From the IMG/VR virus record IMGVR_UViG_2585427793_000008: a stretch of DNA of 20,647 bases, one strand, 5' to 3'. A program made the translations under genes and the position numbers. Source of the stretch: a virus. Lineage: Duplodnaviria; Heunggongvirae; Uroviricota; Caudoviricetes. Positions 1,556 through 14,227 of the stretch are shown here, in pieces (within the stretch, counting starts at the first letter, position 1; the number at the start of each line of letters is the position of its first letter). The notes beneath the pieces are model-generated. The model saw nothing but the letters and a program-made list of their open reading frames with translations, was not told the DNA's origin and did not search any database.

Positions 1556-1708
1556 TTATTCAGATTTACGCAGTAAAGGCCGGAGCACGACCAGCGCCAT
1601 CACCACCAGCACACCATCTGCCAGCACCGACATCAGTCGTCCGGTGAAATCAACCACCACTACCAGAAACAACAGGATGACAGCCAGCACAAGGCGCGCA
1701 CTTTTCAC
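1556..1708 (-). CDS. Small hydrophobic peptide, 50 aa (two predicted TM helices)
   Basis: Hand-translated: GTG at 1708..1706 overlaps TerB-like stop (GTGA); sequence KSARLVLAVILLFLVVVVDFTGRLMSVLADGVLVVMALVVLRPLLRKSE; stop TAA at 1558..1556. Below track size cut-off. Confidence 0.3.
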   Translation of the reverse strand: MKSARLVLAVILLFLVVVVDFTGRLMSVLADGVLVVMALVVLRPLLRKSE

Positions 1709-2130
1709 AGGTACTGCTCCAGCGGCAACTGCAGCGCCTGCGCAATTTTCTTCAGTTGCGCTTCTTCTTCCTGACCGATACCGTCCTGGTCAGCGATATC
1801 CAGACACAGGCACAGCACATTAACTGCATCATCAGTACCGGCAACATCAGCCAGCTGACGAAGAGCTTCGGCATTGGCAGAACGCGGCGACGCTTCATAA
1901 CGGGCGCGGATATTTGCACTCATTTGTGCAATCTCACCGGAGAACGGCGCAAAGGCAGGAAGTGCTGCAATGGTTTTTTCCAGTACCGCGATTTCTTTCG
2001 CGTCACAGGTGCCGTCAGCGTATGCAATGGAGTACGCGCCCCAGACGGTCGCCTCCACTGCGTCACGGTTCTCCATCTTCTTCACTTCGGTAATGGCCTT
2101 GCGGGTTTTCTTTTTGAAAATACCAAACAT
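1705..2130 (-). CDS. TerB-like (tellurite-resistance TerB domain) protein, 141 aa
   Basis: Two aDG...E-type segments (SIAYADGTCDAKEIAVLEK and LCLCLDIADQDGIGQEEEAQLKKIA) recalled as typical of the TerB family; ATG at 2130 with AAGGA SD. Confidence 0.5.
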   Translation of the reverse strand: MFGIFKKKTRKAITEVKKMENRDAVEATVWGAYSIAYADGTCDAKEIAVLEKTIAALPAFAPFSGEIAQMSANIRARYEASPRSANAEALRQLADVAGTDDAVNVLCLCLDIADQDGIGQEEEAQLKKIAQALQLPLEQYL

Positions 2131-2305: not shown

Positions 2306-2382
2306 TGGCGCGTTGTACTGGATTCGAACCAGTGACCGATTGCTTAGAAGGCAATTGCTCTGTCCGGCTGAGCTAACAACGC
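2306..2382 (-). tRNA. argO: tRNA-Arg (anticodon UCU)
   Basis: Hand-folded cloverleaf: acceptor GCGTTGT/ACAACGC, D-arm GCTC/GAGC, anticodon stem ATTGC/GCAAT with loop CTTCTAA, T-arm ACTGG-TTCGAAT-CCAGT, 3-prime GCCA. Symbol by analogy to Stx-phage tRNA islands, recalled not searched. Confidence 0.9.
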
Positions 2383-2396
2383 ATAATGCAGATAAT

Positions 2397-2472
2397 GGAT
2401 TGCCATCGGGGACCCGAGCCCCACACAGCCAGTTTCGAAAGCAGGCGCTCTCTGCCGATGAGCTAATGGCGG
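2397..2472 (-). tRNA. tRNA-like sequence, Arg (UCG)-like anticodon loop, atypical; possibly degenerate
   Basis: D-arm GCTC/GAGC and loop TTTCGAA (anticodon TCG) present, but anticodon stem has 2 mismatches, acceptor stem 2 mismatches, T-loop CTCGGGT non-canonical, 3-prime end UCCA. Confidence 0.4.
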
Positions 2473-2479
2473 TATGTGA

Positions 2480-2555
2480 TGGTGGCCCTTGCTGGATTTG
2501 AACCAGCGACCTGGCGATTATGAGTCGCTCGCTCTCACCACTGAGCTAAAGGGCC
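2480..2555 (-). tRNA. ileZ: tRNA-Ile2/Met-type (anticodon CAU), ileX/ileZ-like
   Basis: Cloverleaf GGCCCTT...AAGGGCC acceptor, anticodon loop CTCATAA, T-arm GCTGG-TTCAAAT-CCAGC, 3-prime ACCA; closely resembles E. coli ileX from memory. Confidence 0.9.
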
Positions 2556-3790: not shown

Positions 3791-3818
3791 AAATTAAAAA
3801 GCCTTCACTGCGGAAGGC
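3791..3818 (-). terminator. Intrinsic terminator-like hairpin overlapping the stop of the small ORF upstream of the methyltransferase
   Basis: Minus strand stem GCCTTC/GAAGGC (3801-3818) followed by UUUUUAAUUUG. Confidence 0.4.
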
Positions 3819-4012
3819 GTCTGTAACAACCGAACTGATAATCTGCCAGACCCGCCATAACAAGCTGAGTCAGTATTAACTGGCAGCGTTCGCGTGAAAG
3901 GTAAGTATTCTGCGCAATTTCCCCGACGGTCGCCGGTTCGGTGACGCTTAATTCATTAAACACCACTCTGGCGGTTTCGGTCATATCCTGCTGTTTTAGC
4001 ATGCCTTTTTCC
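3805..4012 (-). CDS. Small protein, 68 aa, unknown function (possible helix-turn-helix)
   Basis: ATG 4012..4010 with AGGGAAAAAGG SD region; lies between two minus-strand terminators. Confidence 0.4.
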
Positions 4013-4123: not shown

Positions 4124-4150
4124 ATAAAAAAACCCGCATAAAGCGGGTTC
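4124..4150 (-). terminator. Strong intrinsic terminator downstream of the ATPase/TOPRIM cassette (candidate tR-prime-like)
   Basis: Minus strand AACCCGC-UUUAU-GCGGGUU followed by UUUUUUUAUGCC. Confidence 0.6.
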
Positions 4151-4284
4151 TTTCAGGTGTCCATGTCTGCTATTCGCCTCGCGGTATAGCTTTGCGAAGC
4201 GTAGCTGGATTGAAACAGTTTATTGGCAAAAAATCAAGACATTTTACAAACAAAAACAATCAACTGAACAAAAAAGAAAATAAA

Positions 4285-4818
4285 TCATCTTGTTAACCTG
4301 AAATGTTTAGAAAAAGATGACTTAAAACTTGCAACAGGCTCCAATACAGTATGTAAATCTCTTGTAAACCACTTAGTTTCCTGCATGCCCATTTTCAGTA
4401 ACTTTGAAAGTTGATTGTTACAAGCAATAAAATCTCTCTTGAAATCATTTATACCCGATGTTTTTTTTGCACAGAACCCAGCAATTAGTTTTTTTACAGG
4501 AATTCCGCAACACCAGGCCAACTCCTCCTCAAAATTTCTTTTCTGCTGCAAAAGATAAACTTTATGCCCTCTGTTTTTAAGGAACTTTACATTTTCAATG
4601 AATCTTGCAGATTGCTCCACTTCATCACTATCAAAGACAATTAGTATATCACTTCCCTTCGGAATAGTAATCGCATAATTTCTTATGCTCTCTTGCCAAA
4701 AGTTTCTTTTTACAATTGATTTGGCATCAATAACTCTCTGTTGTTTCATCTTCTGAAAAAGAGAGTTTTCTGTTTCACCTTCGACAAAAATTATTCTTAT
4801 TTTAGACAACCCCGCCAT
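4285..4818 (-). CDS. Small TOPRIM-like protein, 177 aa (RloB/AbiLii- or DUF4276-like), second gene of candidate defence cassette
   Basis: N-terminal RIIFVEGETE (conserved Glu) and ILIVFDSDE (DxD) match the TOPRIM catalytic pattern; ATG overlaps ATPase stop (TGATG); AT-rich. Confidence 0.6.
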   Translation of the reverse strand: MAGLSKIRIIFVEGETENSLFQKMKQQRVIDAKSIVKRNFWQESIRNYAITIPKGSDILIVFDSDEVEQSARFIENVKFLKNRGHKVYLLQQKRNFEEELAWCCGIPVKKLIAGFCAKKTSGINDFKRDFIACNNQLSKLLKMGMQETKWFTRDLHTVLEPVASFKSSFSKHFRLTR

Positions 4819-6008
4819 CAGAGTAGCTCCGATACTAATGATGTGTCAGGTAAGACACCAAAGACATCTCTCTCAACAGCGTTTCGCATGCTACGGTCAT
4901 TTTTTTTAACAACTGAATTTGCTTCAACAAACTCCGAATAGTCTTTCGTTTTTTTAATAAAAATGAACGAGTGAACAGGCAGATCCAACTCAAAAATATC
5001 CATGTTATGCGTTGTATAGAAAAACTGAGTATTTTCTTTCAAATTAGATATAATCAGCGCCACAATCATACGCTCTAACTCTGAATGTGTATAAGCCAAT
5101 TTCTCGTCAAGAAAATAAGTCATTGATGGTATTAGAGATTGCTTACCTAGTCTTTCACAATCAGAGATAATAGCGCTTATAAAATGCGCTACCGTCACTG
5201 CCTCGTATGTTCCTCGAGAAAGACGGTCTGAGTTAATTATTTCACCTTTACTGGTAACGACAAGAGAATCAGAGTTTTTAAATTTAATCAGATAAACCGC
5301 AGATGATTTATTTTCATCCCCGTCACTTTCAGACTCCAGCATCTCGGTAACTCCTATAATACTTGAATCGAAAGTGCGAATTATCCTTTCAAGAATATTT
5401 TTATTCATTCCTGAAATTGCAGTGGTACTTTCTTTAGTTTCAGACAACAAATAGTACCATCCACCAAAAAACTTAAGTTGCTTGAAAAACTCCAATACAA
5501 CTGGTTCGCTATCAGTAGCTAGTTCCTGAAAAAAATATTCTGTATCTCCTGGGGCCCTTCCAGAAAAGAGTTGATTCAGTTTTTCTGTGGTTTTATAGCA
5601 AGAATCATTTAATGCTATTTGAACAAAACCATATTTAATTTCTTTGATTATGTGCGCTCCGCCTTCACTGGTAGCAAAGCGTACATACAAACGATGATGA
5701 AAATGTTCCTCCGTAGCAAAGTCTACTTCAAACGAAGCATCATTATTTTTATTATTCACTCGCAGATTACTCCGCAACTCTTTGGTTCTTAGAAACACCT
5801 GAATTCCACAAAGAATTCGCCCTAGTGACGTCTTACCTGAAGCATTTCCCCCCGTTATGATACAGACTTTTTTATAGTAAAATTTAGGCCGTCCAGCCAA
5901 AAACTCCCCATCAAGAGGCATGTTTACAGGTTTCCTTGGATAGGACAGGTTAAGCTCTGCATCCTCAAAAGCGTACAAATTGATAAATCTCAATCGTGTA
6001 AATATCAT
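4818..6008 (-). CDS. ABC-type (AAA_21/AAA_15-like) ATPase, about 396 aa, first gene of candidate defence cassette
   Basis: Walker A CIITGGNASGKTS, Walker B SMTYFLDE, H-loop FFYTTHNMD. Preferred start ATG 6008..6006 (GGAAG upstream; N-terminal RLRFINLYAFEDAEL strand typical of this ATPase class); ORF also open to ATG 6098, overlapping Q stop. Confidence 0.7.
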   Translation of the reverse strand: MIFTRLRFINLYAFEDAELNLSYPRKPVNMPLDGEFLAGRPKFYYKKVCIITGGNASGKTSLGRILCGIQVFLRTKELRSNLRVNNKNNDASFEVDFATEEHFHHRLYVRFATSEGGAHIIKEIKYGFVQIALNDSCYKTTEKLNQLFSGRAPGDTEYFFQELATDSEPVVLEFFKQLKFFGGWYYLLSETKESTTAISGMNKNILERIIRTFDSSIIGVTEMLESESDGDENKSSAVYLIKFKNSDSLVVTSKGEIINSDRLSRGTYEAVTVAHFISAIISDCERLGKQSLIPSMTYFLDEKLAYTHSELERMIVALIISNLKENTQFFYTTHNMDIFELDLPVHSFIFIKKTKDYSEFVEANSVVKKNDRSMRNAVERDVFGVLPDTSLVSELL

Positions 6009-6039
6009 TCTTATCTTCCATATGTTGGAACTTAACGTA

Positions 6040-6068
6040 AGTATTGTCCAGACCTTGATGAACGTCAA
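6040..6068 (-). promoter_or_regulatory. Candidate sigma70 promoter for the ATPase/TOPRIM cassette
   Basis: Minus strand TTGACG (6068..6063), 17-nt spacer, AATACT (6045..6040); just downstream of Q stop, about 30 nt upstream of ATG 6008. Confidence 0.3.
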
Positions 6069-6097
6069 CAAGATTGATAGCTGATGCACTTCTATCA

Positions 6098-6655
6098 TCA
6101 GTTATCAGAAAAGCACCGAAGTGCCACGCACATTGGAAGGAAAAGCATGGTTTCAGCCATCGCCAACCAAACATCAATGCGATTTCTACAAGTTTTCAGG
6201 CTCCAGTCAGGGTGATTCTTTTTTAACTGTTCTGCCATTTTCAGCTTGCTCATTCCCAGCCCTTCATATCTTTGTCGGAGGATACAAATCAATCCCGGAT
6301 GCTCTGCCAACACTTCACTAATTACCCGATCGATACATAACGCCTCGGCATCAGTACAATAAGCCAGCCCGCTCTTTTGCTTGCTGTTGATCATCTCACG
6401 CAAAAACGCTTCCAGCTCAGTTTTATCAATCCCTGATTTTTTTATTCTGCGCAGAGCTTCATTGATCGCAGTTTTTGTAAGTGTTTTGGATGCCAGCAAC
6501 TGATTGAACATATTTCCTGGTTTGCCACCACCTATGTACGACCAACGCCCCCACATCCGTAATTTCCCCTGGATCCAGACGGCTTCCAGCGTTTTTAGAC
6601 GTAAATGCTCGCCGCTTTTGCCTGTAATTTCCGGGTATATCATATTTACGATCAC
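6098..6655 (-). CDS. Q-like late antiterminator (phage 82 / quuD-type family)
   Basis: WGRW motif near N-terminus, CTDAEALCIDRV and RQRYEGLGMSKLKMAEQL segments resemble recalled Q82-type antiterminators; position after RusA and before late region. GTG 6655 overlaps RusA stop; alternative ATG 6643. Confidence 0.5.
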   Translation of the reverse strand: MIVNMIYPEITGKSGEHLRLKTLEAVWIQGKLRMWGRWSYIGGGKPGNMFNQLLASKTLTKTAINEALRRIKKSGIDKTELEAFLREMINSKQKSGLAYCTDAEALCIDRVISEVLAEHPGLICILRQRYEGLGMSKLKMAEQLKKNHPDWSLKTCRNRIDVWLAMAETMLFLPMCVALRCFSDN

Positions 6656-13404: not shown

Positions 13405-13537
13405 AACAAAGCACCAATATTAACTTTATAAATCAAGAGTACATCAAGTTTAAATTAACATGCAAGTTACAAAAGGATCGAATACACTAAAATCAAGTAA
13501 AGATTTATCCTTGTAAAGAAACCCACAGGATTTGGTC
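13405..13537. promoter_or_regulatory. Immunity-region divergent promoter/operator interval (pR/pRM/OR analogue)
   Basis: AT-rich 133-bp spacer between divergent cro-like and cI; octamers AAATCAAG (about 13429 and 13490) and ACATCAAG (13441) repeated; AGGA SD before cI ATG. Confidence 0.5.
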
Positions 13538-14227
13538 ATGAAGAACGTCAAAAACACGGAAAATCGAATAGCCGCGATGCTGAAAGCAAAAGGATGGACT
13601 CAGGCTCAACTGGCCCGCAAGTTAGGTGTGAGTGCGCAATCAGTGCAGTACTGGACAACAGGAAAAACATTTCCACGGAGTGATAAGCTCGCGCATTTAT
13701 CAGAGATTAGCGGTTATCCACAATCCTGGTTCTTAGGTGAAGACTCCTCACCAACCTTTTCCTCGCAAGAGAAACACCAGACAAGAACAGATAGCGTCGT
13801 GTTTAATGTCCTTGATGTTGAGTTTAGTTGCGGTGATGGAACTCATGTCCGTGGTGACTTGATAGATGTAGTGCGCTCAATAGAACTTGATCCTGAATAT
13901 GCCCGACGTCTTGTTGGAAATCGGGCATTCAAAAATATAGAAATAGGTAACGCCAGAGGAGACAGTATGGCTCCCACAATCTCACCTGGCGACCTTCTTT
14001 TTCTTGATAAGACAGTAACTTATTTTGATGGCGATGGTATTTATGCATTTTGTTTTGATGGAGAATGCTACGTGAAAAGGCTTCAAAAAATTGGAAGCAA
14101 AATCATGGTGTTATCTGATAACCCCAATTATCAACCATGGAGCATCGAAAAAGAGGGGTTAGCTCTGCTTTATATCCAGTCTAAAGTGATCTCATCAGTA
14201 CCATTCAACATAAACAGATTTGGTTAG
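13538..14227 (+). CDS. CI-type repressor (N-terminal XRE HTH + C-terminal S24 LexA-like peptidase)
   Basis: HTH WTQAQLARKLGVSAQSVQYW; S24 motifs GDSMAPTISPGDLLFLD and YVKRL (Ser-Lys dyad). ATG at 13538; track ORF starts at upstream TTG. Confidence 0.9.
   Translation: MKNVKNTENRIAAMLKAKGWTQAQLARKLGVSAQSVQYWTTGKTFPRSDKLAHLSEISGYPQSWFLGEDSSPTFSSQEKHQTRTDSVVFNVLDVEFSCGDGTHVRGDLIDVVRSIELDPEYARRLVGNRAFKNIEIGNARGDSMAPTISPGDLLFLDKTVTYFDGDGIYAFCFDGECYVKRLQKIGSKIMVLSDNPNYQPWSIEKEGLALLYIQSKVISSVPFNINRFG

Follow-up and report, generated by a model that had tools for sequence, protein, structure and literature searches.

Organization of the cassette locus

We analyzed a 20,647-nucleotide stretch of viral DNA (Caudoviricetes; IMG/VR virus record IMGVR_UViG_2585427793_000008), referred to here as the window, which was identified as a lambdoid prophage from its gene content (open reading frames [ORFs], Pfam and tRNA scans). 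On its minus strand, a two-gene cassette encoding an ABC/SMC-type ATPase and a TOPRIM-like partner directly follows the gene for a Q-type antiterminator, and a probable late promoter for Q lies on the far side of the cassette. Our comparisons make it likely that the cassette is an autonomous transcription unit, a self-promoted moron inserted between Q and the late promoter of Q. Morons are extra genes of lambdoid phages with their own promoters, located between conserved phage genes, a concept that stems from comparisons of HK97 and HK022. The features of the locus are the following.

6098..6643, minus strand: gene for a Q-type antiterminator of the DUF1133 family, 181 amino acids, stop codon TGA at 6100-6098
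6096..6100, minus strand: TGATG, in which the Q stop codon and an ATG have one base (A6098) in common; read from the sequence
6009..6098, minus strand: 30-codon in-frame extension, probably no functional coding region, overlapping the promoter and palindrome below
6063..6068, minus strand: TTGACG, -35 hexamer of the predicted sigma-70 promoter of the cassette; from the promoter scan and conservation
6040..6045, minus strand: AATACT, -10 hexamer of the same promoter; GATACT, GATAAT or AATACT in relatives, with a spacer that is always 17 nucleotides
6031..6034, minus strand: predicted transcription start, about 7 nucleotides past the -10 hexamer; from promoter geometry
6016..6030, minus strand: palindrome TTCCA-ACATA-TGGAA at the predicted 5' end of the mRNA, its right arm overlapping the ribosome binding site
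6015..6019, minus strand: Shine-Dalgarno-like GGAAG with a 6-nucleotide spacer to ATG 6008, kept in enterobacterial leaders
4818..6008, minus strand: AbiLi-like ATPase of the ABC/SMC type, 396 amino acids; from PADLOC, motifs and the RefSeq start in Escherichia coli B7A
4285..4818, minus strand: AbiLii-like partner, TOPRIM-like, 177 amino acids; its ATG (4818-4816) overlaps the ATPase stop codon (4820-4818) in a TGATG
4246..4284, minus strand: T-rich spacer between cassette and late promoter, with no terminator-like site in the scan
4234..4245, minus strand: AAAATGTCTTGA, a 12-nucleotide relic corresponding to the last codons and stop of an RM12579-type Q gene; from identity to an empty-site locus (L002)
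4209..4237, minus strand: probable displaced Q-specific late promoter (pR'), TTGATT (4237-4232), a 17-nucleotide spacer and TTCAAT (4214-4209), with TGt before the latter
4126..4202, minus strand: predicted late leader RNA of about 77 nucleotides with the intrinsic terminator tR' (CCCGC at 4147-4143, GCGGG at 4137-4133, U7 at 4132-4126)

An earlier, preliminary description of this DNA had reported the overlapping TGA (6100-6098) and ATG that share A6098, the in-frame ATG at 6008, and TTGACG-N17-AATACT at 6068-6040; all of these coordinates on the minus strand were correct.

The Q product matched Pfam DUF1133 (8.4e-99) and also Phage_antitermQ (1.8e-07, 31.5 bits against a cut-off of 26 bits), and homologues in phage records, such as that of Rac-SA53, are annotated as antitermination protein Q. 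The cassette itself, about 1.8 kb, is filed here as an AbiL-like two-gene system on the basis of profile matches. Its ATPase matched the PADLOC profile AbiLi over residues 26-420 (9.6e-26), with weaker matches to other defence ATPases and subthreshold Pfam matches to AAA_15, SMC_N and AAA_21. The motifs GNASGKTS, DE and TTH, which we read as Walker A, Walker B and H-loop, are invariant in an alignment of 17 relatives (alignment A5). The partner matched AbiLii weakly (1.7e-03), but 15 of 20 family members matched it (best value, 2.8e-06). It has invariant residues at E13, G14, E17, D63, D65 and N95-E99, and its structure model is confident (predicted local distance difference test score, 90.9). 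A Foldseek search against PDB returned only generic folds. No Pfam or NCBIfam family was above threshold for the cassette proteins and no solved relative was found by sequence; searches of NCBIfam and PDB sequences with the two proteins and Q gave no meaningful match. The cassette did not qualify as PARIS, since the ATPase gave only partial matches to AriA (1.8e-07, residues 227-367) and the partner gave none to AriB. A literature look-up by protein accession returned nothing. A 2026 review groups AbiL with PARIS in an ATPase + TOPRIM/OLD class (PMC13064643).

The cassette was present in 7 of 5,426 complete E. coli genomes, including that of strain B7A, within prophages 99.0 to 99.3% identical to the window over 3.4 kb, and the empty site was found in many. 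Thus, as expected of a moron, it is present in some phage genomes and missing from others that are otherwise collinear. We also noted two copies at other positions. The first is a paralogous cassette of E. coli (L039 3501-5236; GCA_041269625.1) with 58% ATPase identity and the same promoter and palindrome, flanked by host polyamine-transporter-like genes on one side and a prophage integrase on the other; the cluster of its partner protein, P0137, occurs on 199 contigs. The second (L006 3850-4001; Logan ERR10124956) is chromosomal, between an ATP_bind_3 gene and a Usp gene, and it retains the last ~19 codons of Q, of the same tail type as in the window and with the stop at the same position. 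This suggests that a prophage decayed around a retained cassette. An 11-nucleotide inverted repeat at the cassette termini (6064-6074, ATCTTGTTGAC; 4287-4297, GTTAACAAGAT; 10 of 11 positions complementary) was treated as chance because it is missing at the cassette ends of L006 and L007 and because 22 comparable repeats occur in 2 kb of this AT-rich DNA.

A predicted sigma-70 promoter is conserved with the cassette

The element at 6068-6040 matches the sigma-70 consensus at 9 of 12 positions, with A2 and T6 of the -10 hexamer present and a spacer within the range of 16 to 18 nucleotides. Support for a promoter comes from comparison with relatives and not from the window sequence by itself. We compared ten distinct, diverged leaders, whose ATPases are 55 to 89% identical to that of the window. 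Six kinds of context were represented:

L010: after a second DUF1133 Q gene
L007 and L008/L009: after two lambda-type (PF03589) Q genes with 64% identity between them
L006: in a chromosomal remnant, with dbpA-like and usp-like genes nearby
L011 and L012: beside a giant LPD/MuF gene
L039: next to an E. coli prophage integrase
L013, L046 and L047: on Erwinia and viral contigs

All ten leaders have TTGA(C/T)(G/C), exactly 17 nucleotides, (A/G)ATA(C/A)T and then, exactly 9 nucleotides on, TTCCA. Column identity was 51% upstream of the -35 hexamer, 95% in it, 59% in the spacer, 93% in the -10 hexamer and 100% in the palindrome arms; A2 and T6 of the -10 hexamer were invariant. Four-fold synonymous sites of the ATPase gene were just 27 to 45% identical to those of the window, so neutral positions are saturated, and retention of the element in ten diverged copies across these contexts argues that it belongs to the cassette. 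Homology among the copies begins a few nucleotides upstream of TTGACG. At the equivalent site of L007 the scan scored 10 of 12, and farther relatives carry different yet canonical -10 boxes at the same position (for example, TGTATAAT). These comparisons give good support to the view that the 6068-6040 element moves together with the cassette and bears the conservation footprint of a functional sigma-70 promoter. One of two models offered in the preliminary description, expression of the cassette independently in the lysogen, accordingly gains from the comparative evidence, in which the element behaves as a real promoter.

Could the same conservation have another cause? TTGACG...AATACT might be a recombination site or a protein-binding site that moves with the cassette, transcription coming only by read-through from upstream phage promoters. 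In the window alone, the promoter score is at chance (7 sites this good in 5.2 kb, versus 7.5 +/- 3.0 in shuffled sequence), and the adjoining conserved palindrome shows that the leader holds other functional motifs. The pattern of conservation, however, is that of sigma-70 promoters: two hexamers are kept while the 17-nucleotide spacer drifts, and the two -10 positions are invariant. Moreover, the element is kept where there is no upstream phage operon, as in L039, beside divergent host transport genes, and in the chromosomal remnant L006, and the farther relatives have other canonical -10 boxes in the same place. We therefore consider a nonpromoter site very unlikely and retain the reading of a promoter belonging to the cassette.

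The best promoter-like match of the region is a different one, TTGATA-N17-TATCAT (10 of 12) at 5980-6008 on the plus strand, antisense over the ATPase start codon. A similar site was scored in L007; coding constraint on the conserved N terminus confounds a conservation test there.

A palindrome lies at the predicted 5' end of the cassette mRNA

The palindrome begins 1 to 3 nucleotides past the predicted transcript start. The motif TTCC-N7-GGAA, usually in the form TTCCA-N5-TGGAA, was found in 28 of 37 distinct leaders, at 19 to 26 nucleotides from the ATG on its upstream side; allowing one mismatch raised the count to 35 of 37 (shuffled sequences, 0.016). A scan of genome contigs returned mostly distant relatives, which were useful for the palindrome, not for the context of Q. 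The motif persists down to ~32% protein identity, on contigs labelled Moraxella, Neisseriaceae, Pelistega, Gilliamella, sulfur-oxidising symbionts and Erysipelothrix. In all 10 enterobacterial leaders, it stands at a fixed distance of 9 nucleotides from the -10 hexamer. Within the window, no further exact copy was found besides 6030-6016.

As an RNA hairpin, the palindrome is weak (-3.6 kcal/mol, z = -0.19). No compensatory changes were seen between its arms; there were 10 broken pairs and one G-U pair in a set that had been picked by regular expression, such that invariance of the core is partly by construction. The weak fold and the absent covariation neither support nor exclude pairing in the RNA. 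An Rfam search of the cassette leader matched no family. In two outliers, the palindrome stays by the promoter and not by the start codon: in L032 it directly follows TATAAT, 23 nucleotides from the ATG, and in L035 a related ATCCA-N5-TGGAT lies upstream of the promoter. The palindrome is most likely a control element, whether an operator or a 5' hairpin, and we lean towards a DNA operator or another sequence-specific element.

The overlap with Q and the start of the ATPase

The ATPase frame is closed by TAA at 6104-6102, two codons upstream of the ATG at 6098-6096, so the latter is the furthest possible start. From there, an ORF of 426 amino acids runs down to 4818 on the minus strand. The in-frame ATG at 6008-6006, 90 nucleotides downstream, gives 396 amino acids. 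The preliminary description had favored ATG 6008 as the first convincing start, and this is borne out by several observations. A search with the 426-residue ORF found 211 relatives; among the 120 homologues listed, almost all are ~365 to 430 amino acids long and cover 93% of the query, from Met31. RefSeq places the start of the identical E. coli B7A locus at the equivalent of 6008. In alignment A5, M1, I2, T4 and R5 of the 396-residue form are invariant. Finally, GGAAG precedes ATG 6008 with a spacer of 6 nucleotides, and no Shine-Dalgarno sequence was seen upstream of ATG 6098 on reading the sequence.

The same description had held that the cassette is wired to Q by the TGATG overlap, an arrangement typical of coupled genes. 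Functional translational coupling would mean that ribosomes leaving Q reinitiate at ATG 6098 and make a 426-residue ATPase during lytic growth, the main expression being tied to Q. The overlap at 6100-6096 is of the kind found in coupled pairs, the 30-codon frame is uninterrupted and is identical in 8 of 8 near-identical copies, one gene caller gave the 426-residue form (P0001), and no strong terminator separates Q from the cassette. The eight copies have zero substitutions in 5990-6140, which makes them uninformative on the extension, and they cannot exclude its use. In the wider family, the overlapping start is not the start used: the extension is missing from almost all of the listed homologues. 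Nor is the arrangement conserved where both genes adjoin. The number of open codons upstream of the start in nine other loci is 31, 26, 4, 1, 31, 7, 14, 35 and 0, with no consistent start, and in the two contexts with a lambda-type Q the frame closes after only 1 to 4 codons. The distance from the Q stop to the ATPase ATG is 88 nucleotides in L010, 108 in L007 and 119 in L008, with differing frames. The nearest diverged junction, that of L006 (89% ATPase identity, Q tail of the same type), shows TGATAG at this point, along with a 1-nucleotide indel in the leader. In contrast, the TGATG that joins the ATPase stop to the partner ATG (4820-4816) is conserved in relatives. ATG 6098 also lacks a Shine-Dalgarno sequence, and the codons of the extension would coincide with the promoter and palindrome, whose conservation is that of DNA motifs around a freely varying spacer. 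Coupling to Q thus seems to us highly improbable.

The C-terminal ~10 residues of Q vary among all alleles compared. In other copies the 30-codon extension is interrupted, out of register or missing, so the overlap looks incidental; it probably reflects the point of junction between the cassette and the variable 3' end of Q, and not a functional link. A priori, such an overlap has a chance of ~1 in 200, a rough estimate that counts TG after the stop, the right frame and 29 open codons for an overlap that was spotted post hoc and is lacking in relatives.

A candidate terminator at the end of Q (6112..6125, minus strand; GGCAC-UUCG-GUGCU followed by UUUUCU) was rejected; its fold is weak (-6.1 kcal/mol, z = -0.41) and it is absent from other Q alleles.

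The probable late promoter of Q is displaced by the cassette

In relatives with an empty site, Q is joined directly to a block that begins at window position 4245. In strain RM12579 (L002), where alignment and BLAST place the start of homology at the same point, the TGA stop codon of Q lies inside the TTGATT hexamer. Downstream, the leader and terminator fold with -37.1 kcal/mol (z = -6.3). Other phages with a DUF1133 Q have TTGAYT at or just past the Q stop, with TTCAAT, TTGAAT, TATCTT (Rac-SA53) or TATAGT (a Providencia phage, TTGACT-N16-TATAGT) at the -10 place. Among the IMG/VR loci that have the leader motif and a DUF1133 Q upstream, Q is adjacent in 65 of 75. Where the same backbone bears one of three other Q types, the promoter-terminator unit is a different one, and homology with the window picks up again at 4137. 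A lambda-like unit among them is TTGATT-N16-TAAATT followed by AACGAT, which we take to be the lambda pR' pause element.

The block from 4245 onward was read as a late unit specific to this Q because TTGAYT stands near Q stops, because the unit swaps with Q type, and because Q is adjacent in most loci. It has the layout of a pR'-tR' unit, with a promoter directly past Q, a terminator within ~100 nucleotides, and a sequence that changes along with the type of Q. It is probable from this that 4237-4126 comprises the late promoter and terminator of Q, intact downstream of the cassette. The preliminary description had supposed that the insertion displaces this promoter, and a candidate for it indeed persists ~1.86 kb further on (4237-4209), with its terminator at 4147-4126. 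A literature search found no paper on the late promoter of DUF1133-type Q genes.

The late leader gave a weak full-length match to the Rfam family isrK (window 4127-4200, minus strand; 21.6 bits, E = 0.086), below the 50-bit threshold, and when aligned with the true isrK of the window it had little sequence similarity past the overall layout. It also contains a 5' hairpin, GCUUCGC...GCGAGGC (4169-4205, minus strand), whose loop, AAGCU(A/G)UA(C/U), is conserved in E. coli and Providencia phages with a DUF1133 Q. This hairpin may be part of Q recognition or of a pause signal.

The gap between Q and the late promoter is used repeatedly

Most relatives have no more than a few tens of nucleotides between Q and the late promoter. 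The cassette occupies this gap in four junction types that involve two unrelated Q families. In L007 and L008, TTGACT-N18-TATGCT follows 12 to 30 nucleotides past the partner stop and precedes a terminator; the sequence just past this promoter resembles the lambda pause element. No terminator was found by the scan between the partner gene and pR' in these copies with a lambda-type Q. In L010, the cassette is followed by TTGCAA-N17-TTTAAT.

A different self-promoted module, of ~0.85 kb, fills the gap in 9 of the 75 IMG/VR loci:

L085, 10741-11600: module with the promoter TTGACT-N18-TATATT, isrK (75.6 bits), a C4 antisense RNA (77.6 bits) and an ORF6N-type antirepressor
L094, L102, L103, L111, L115, L125, L129 and L136: further loci with the gap module

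The RNA content of the module was confirmed by Rfam in L085 only. The window has its own isrK-C4-antirepressor module in the early region (12243-11638, minus strand), with isrK at 12243-12167 (53.9 bits) and the C4 antisense RNA at 12142-12055 (80.4 bits), both found by Rfam on the minus strand just upstream of an antirepressor-like ORF. This isrK is preceded by TTGATT-N17-TACACT. Within limited literature searches, the recurrent placement of cargo between Q and the late promoter and the family-wide palindrome appear to be undescribed.

A model for expression of the cassette

We propose that sigma-70 RNA polymerase would start at TTGACG-N17-AATACT (6068-6040), probably near 6033, and make a short leader that opens with the palindrome TTCCA-N5-TGGAA overlapping the ribosome binding site. 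The ATPase would be translated from ATG 6008, and the partner gene would be coupled to it via the conserved TGATG. Since the scan lists no terminator between the partner stop and the late promoter, the transcript should cross the latter and end at tR' (4147-4126). In the lysogen, the cassette would thus be made without Q. After induction, early transcripts through Q would add to cassette transcription; such read-through is expected because there is no convincing terminator after Q, the hairpin at 6125-6112 being weak. The read-through and independent-promoter models are not exclusive. Q should still be able to act at the displaced promoter, since Q proteins, as restated in PMC4825925, act through a DNA site at the promoter.

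Several points weigh against this model. As noted, the promoter score is at chance in the window alone, and the activity of the promoter, the start of its transcript and the end at tR' are predictions from sequence. The hexamers of the late promoter are tentative: TTCAAT lacks the usual A at position 2 of the -10, the scan did not list it, and the unit yielded no assignable pause element. The 426-residue ORF is genuinely open and is identical in the eight near-identical copies examined, and reinitiation at overlapping stop and start codons has no strict need of a Shine-Dalgarno sequence. Finally, the anti-phage role is suggested solely by profile similarity.

The last point bears on the purpose of the cassette, which might serve less as a lysogen defence than as an addiction or toxin-antitoxin-like module, or as a lytic-cycle factor whose relevant expression comes from early read-through. 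Its function is assigned from profile matches, its position after Q guarantees a boost on induction, and the review cited above (PMC13064643) states of the related PARIS that it acts as a toxin-antitoxin pair, and of AbiL that its mechanism is untested. On the other hand, the models that recognize the family, AbiLi and AbiLii, are those of a defence system; copies of the cassette are also found elsewhere at places typical of cargo, for example next to the integrase in L039; and a conserved promoter of its own speaks for expression of the cassette outside the lytic programme. We regard a nondefence role as unlikely and continue to read the cassette as a self-promoted, probably defensive moron. 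On this evidence, the comparative data predict constitutive, Q-independent expression in the lysogen, with a start near 6033 and a protein beginning MIFTR, the overlap with Q having no role.

A further idea is offered tentatively, as one that may well not hold: the palindrome could be a dedicated control element, either an operator for the proteins of the system itself or a translation gate in the 5' RNA, and the gap between Q and the late promoter could be a selected safe harbour for self-promoted cargo. If this is true, a defence system that is potentially toxic would have its expression set or switched by the palindrome. Cargo in the gap would escape removal by module exchange, because Q and its target site must be inherited together, and would gain a ready-made terminator and an induction boost. 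Two leads follow: a conserved 15-nucleotide palindrome, probably the control element of a whole AbiL-like clade, and a gap of lambdoid prophages in which self-promoted cargo recurs. The general view of defence morons carried by prophages stays the same with both.

Other features of the prophage

On the minus strand, the window carries a Cro-like gene, antirepressors, replication genes, DUF968, RusA, the Q-like gene, the cassette, a methyltransferase, three tRNA genes, a TerB-like gene and lysis genes. Features outside the cassette locus are the following.

19334 onward: integrase
13532-14227, plus strand: CI-like repressor
3805..4002, minus strand: first ORF past the terminator, 65 amino acids, annotated in relatives
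3654-2605, minus strand: DNA methyltransferase (Pfam N6_N4_Mtase)
2306-2555, minus strand: three tRNA genes (Met-CAT, Arg-TCG and Arg-TCT)
1705-2130, minus strand: TerB-family gene

An ORF of 106 amino acids that overlaps the first of the ORFs past the terminator had a weak match to Pfam TrmB (0.0077), under the cut-off. The CAT tRNA is named tRNA-Ile in RefSeq records of relatives. The TerB-family gene stands at what we take to be the place of stx in Shiga toxin (Stx) phages. The backbone of a small ORF and a methyltransferase is common to many Stx2 phages.

Comparison with known systems

The cassette resembles Lactococcus AbiL and the ATPase-TOPRIM/OLD class (PARIS AriA/AriB and RloAB) in having an ABC/Rad50-like ATPase followed by a small protein with acidic motifs of the TOPRIM type, and it matches the PADLOC profiles AbiLi and AbiLii. 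Unlike those systems, it forms a distant enterobacterial clade, has no match to a partner of the AriB type and has an anti-phage role that is only predicted.

Around it, the backbone of a small ORF, a methyltransferase and tRNA genes is like that of the late region of Stx phages (PMC6266700). The arrangement of a Q gene, an adjacent late promoter, a short terminated leader RNA and late genes recalls the Q-pR'-6S RNA-tR' unit of lambda. The window differs in that its Q is of the DUF1133 branch, 1.86 kb of cargo interrupts the unit, and the candidate -10 is noncanonical.

The antQ-isrK-orf45-anrP region of Gifsy-1 likewise has, directly after a Q-like antiterminator gene, a self-promoted module (Hershko-Shalev et al. 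2016; PMC4825925), and its gene order is that of the gap module in L085. The cargo of Gifsy-1 is a circuit of regulatory RNA and antirepressor that feeds back on the phage, whereas the cargo of the window is an ATPase-TOPRIM cassette.

In comparison with lambdoid morons, the cassette differs in having no listed terminator, so that it seems to borrow the tR' of Q, and in sitting between a regulator gene and the target promoter of that regulator. Like them, it is missing from collinear relatives, lies at a module boundary and appears to have a sigma-70 promoter of its own.

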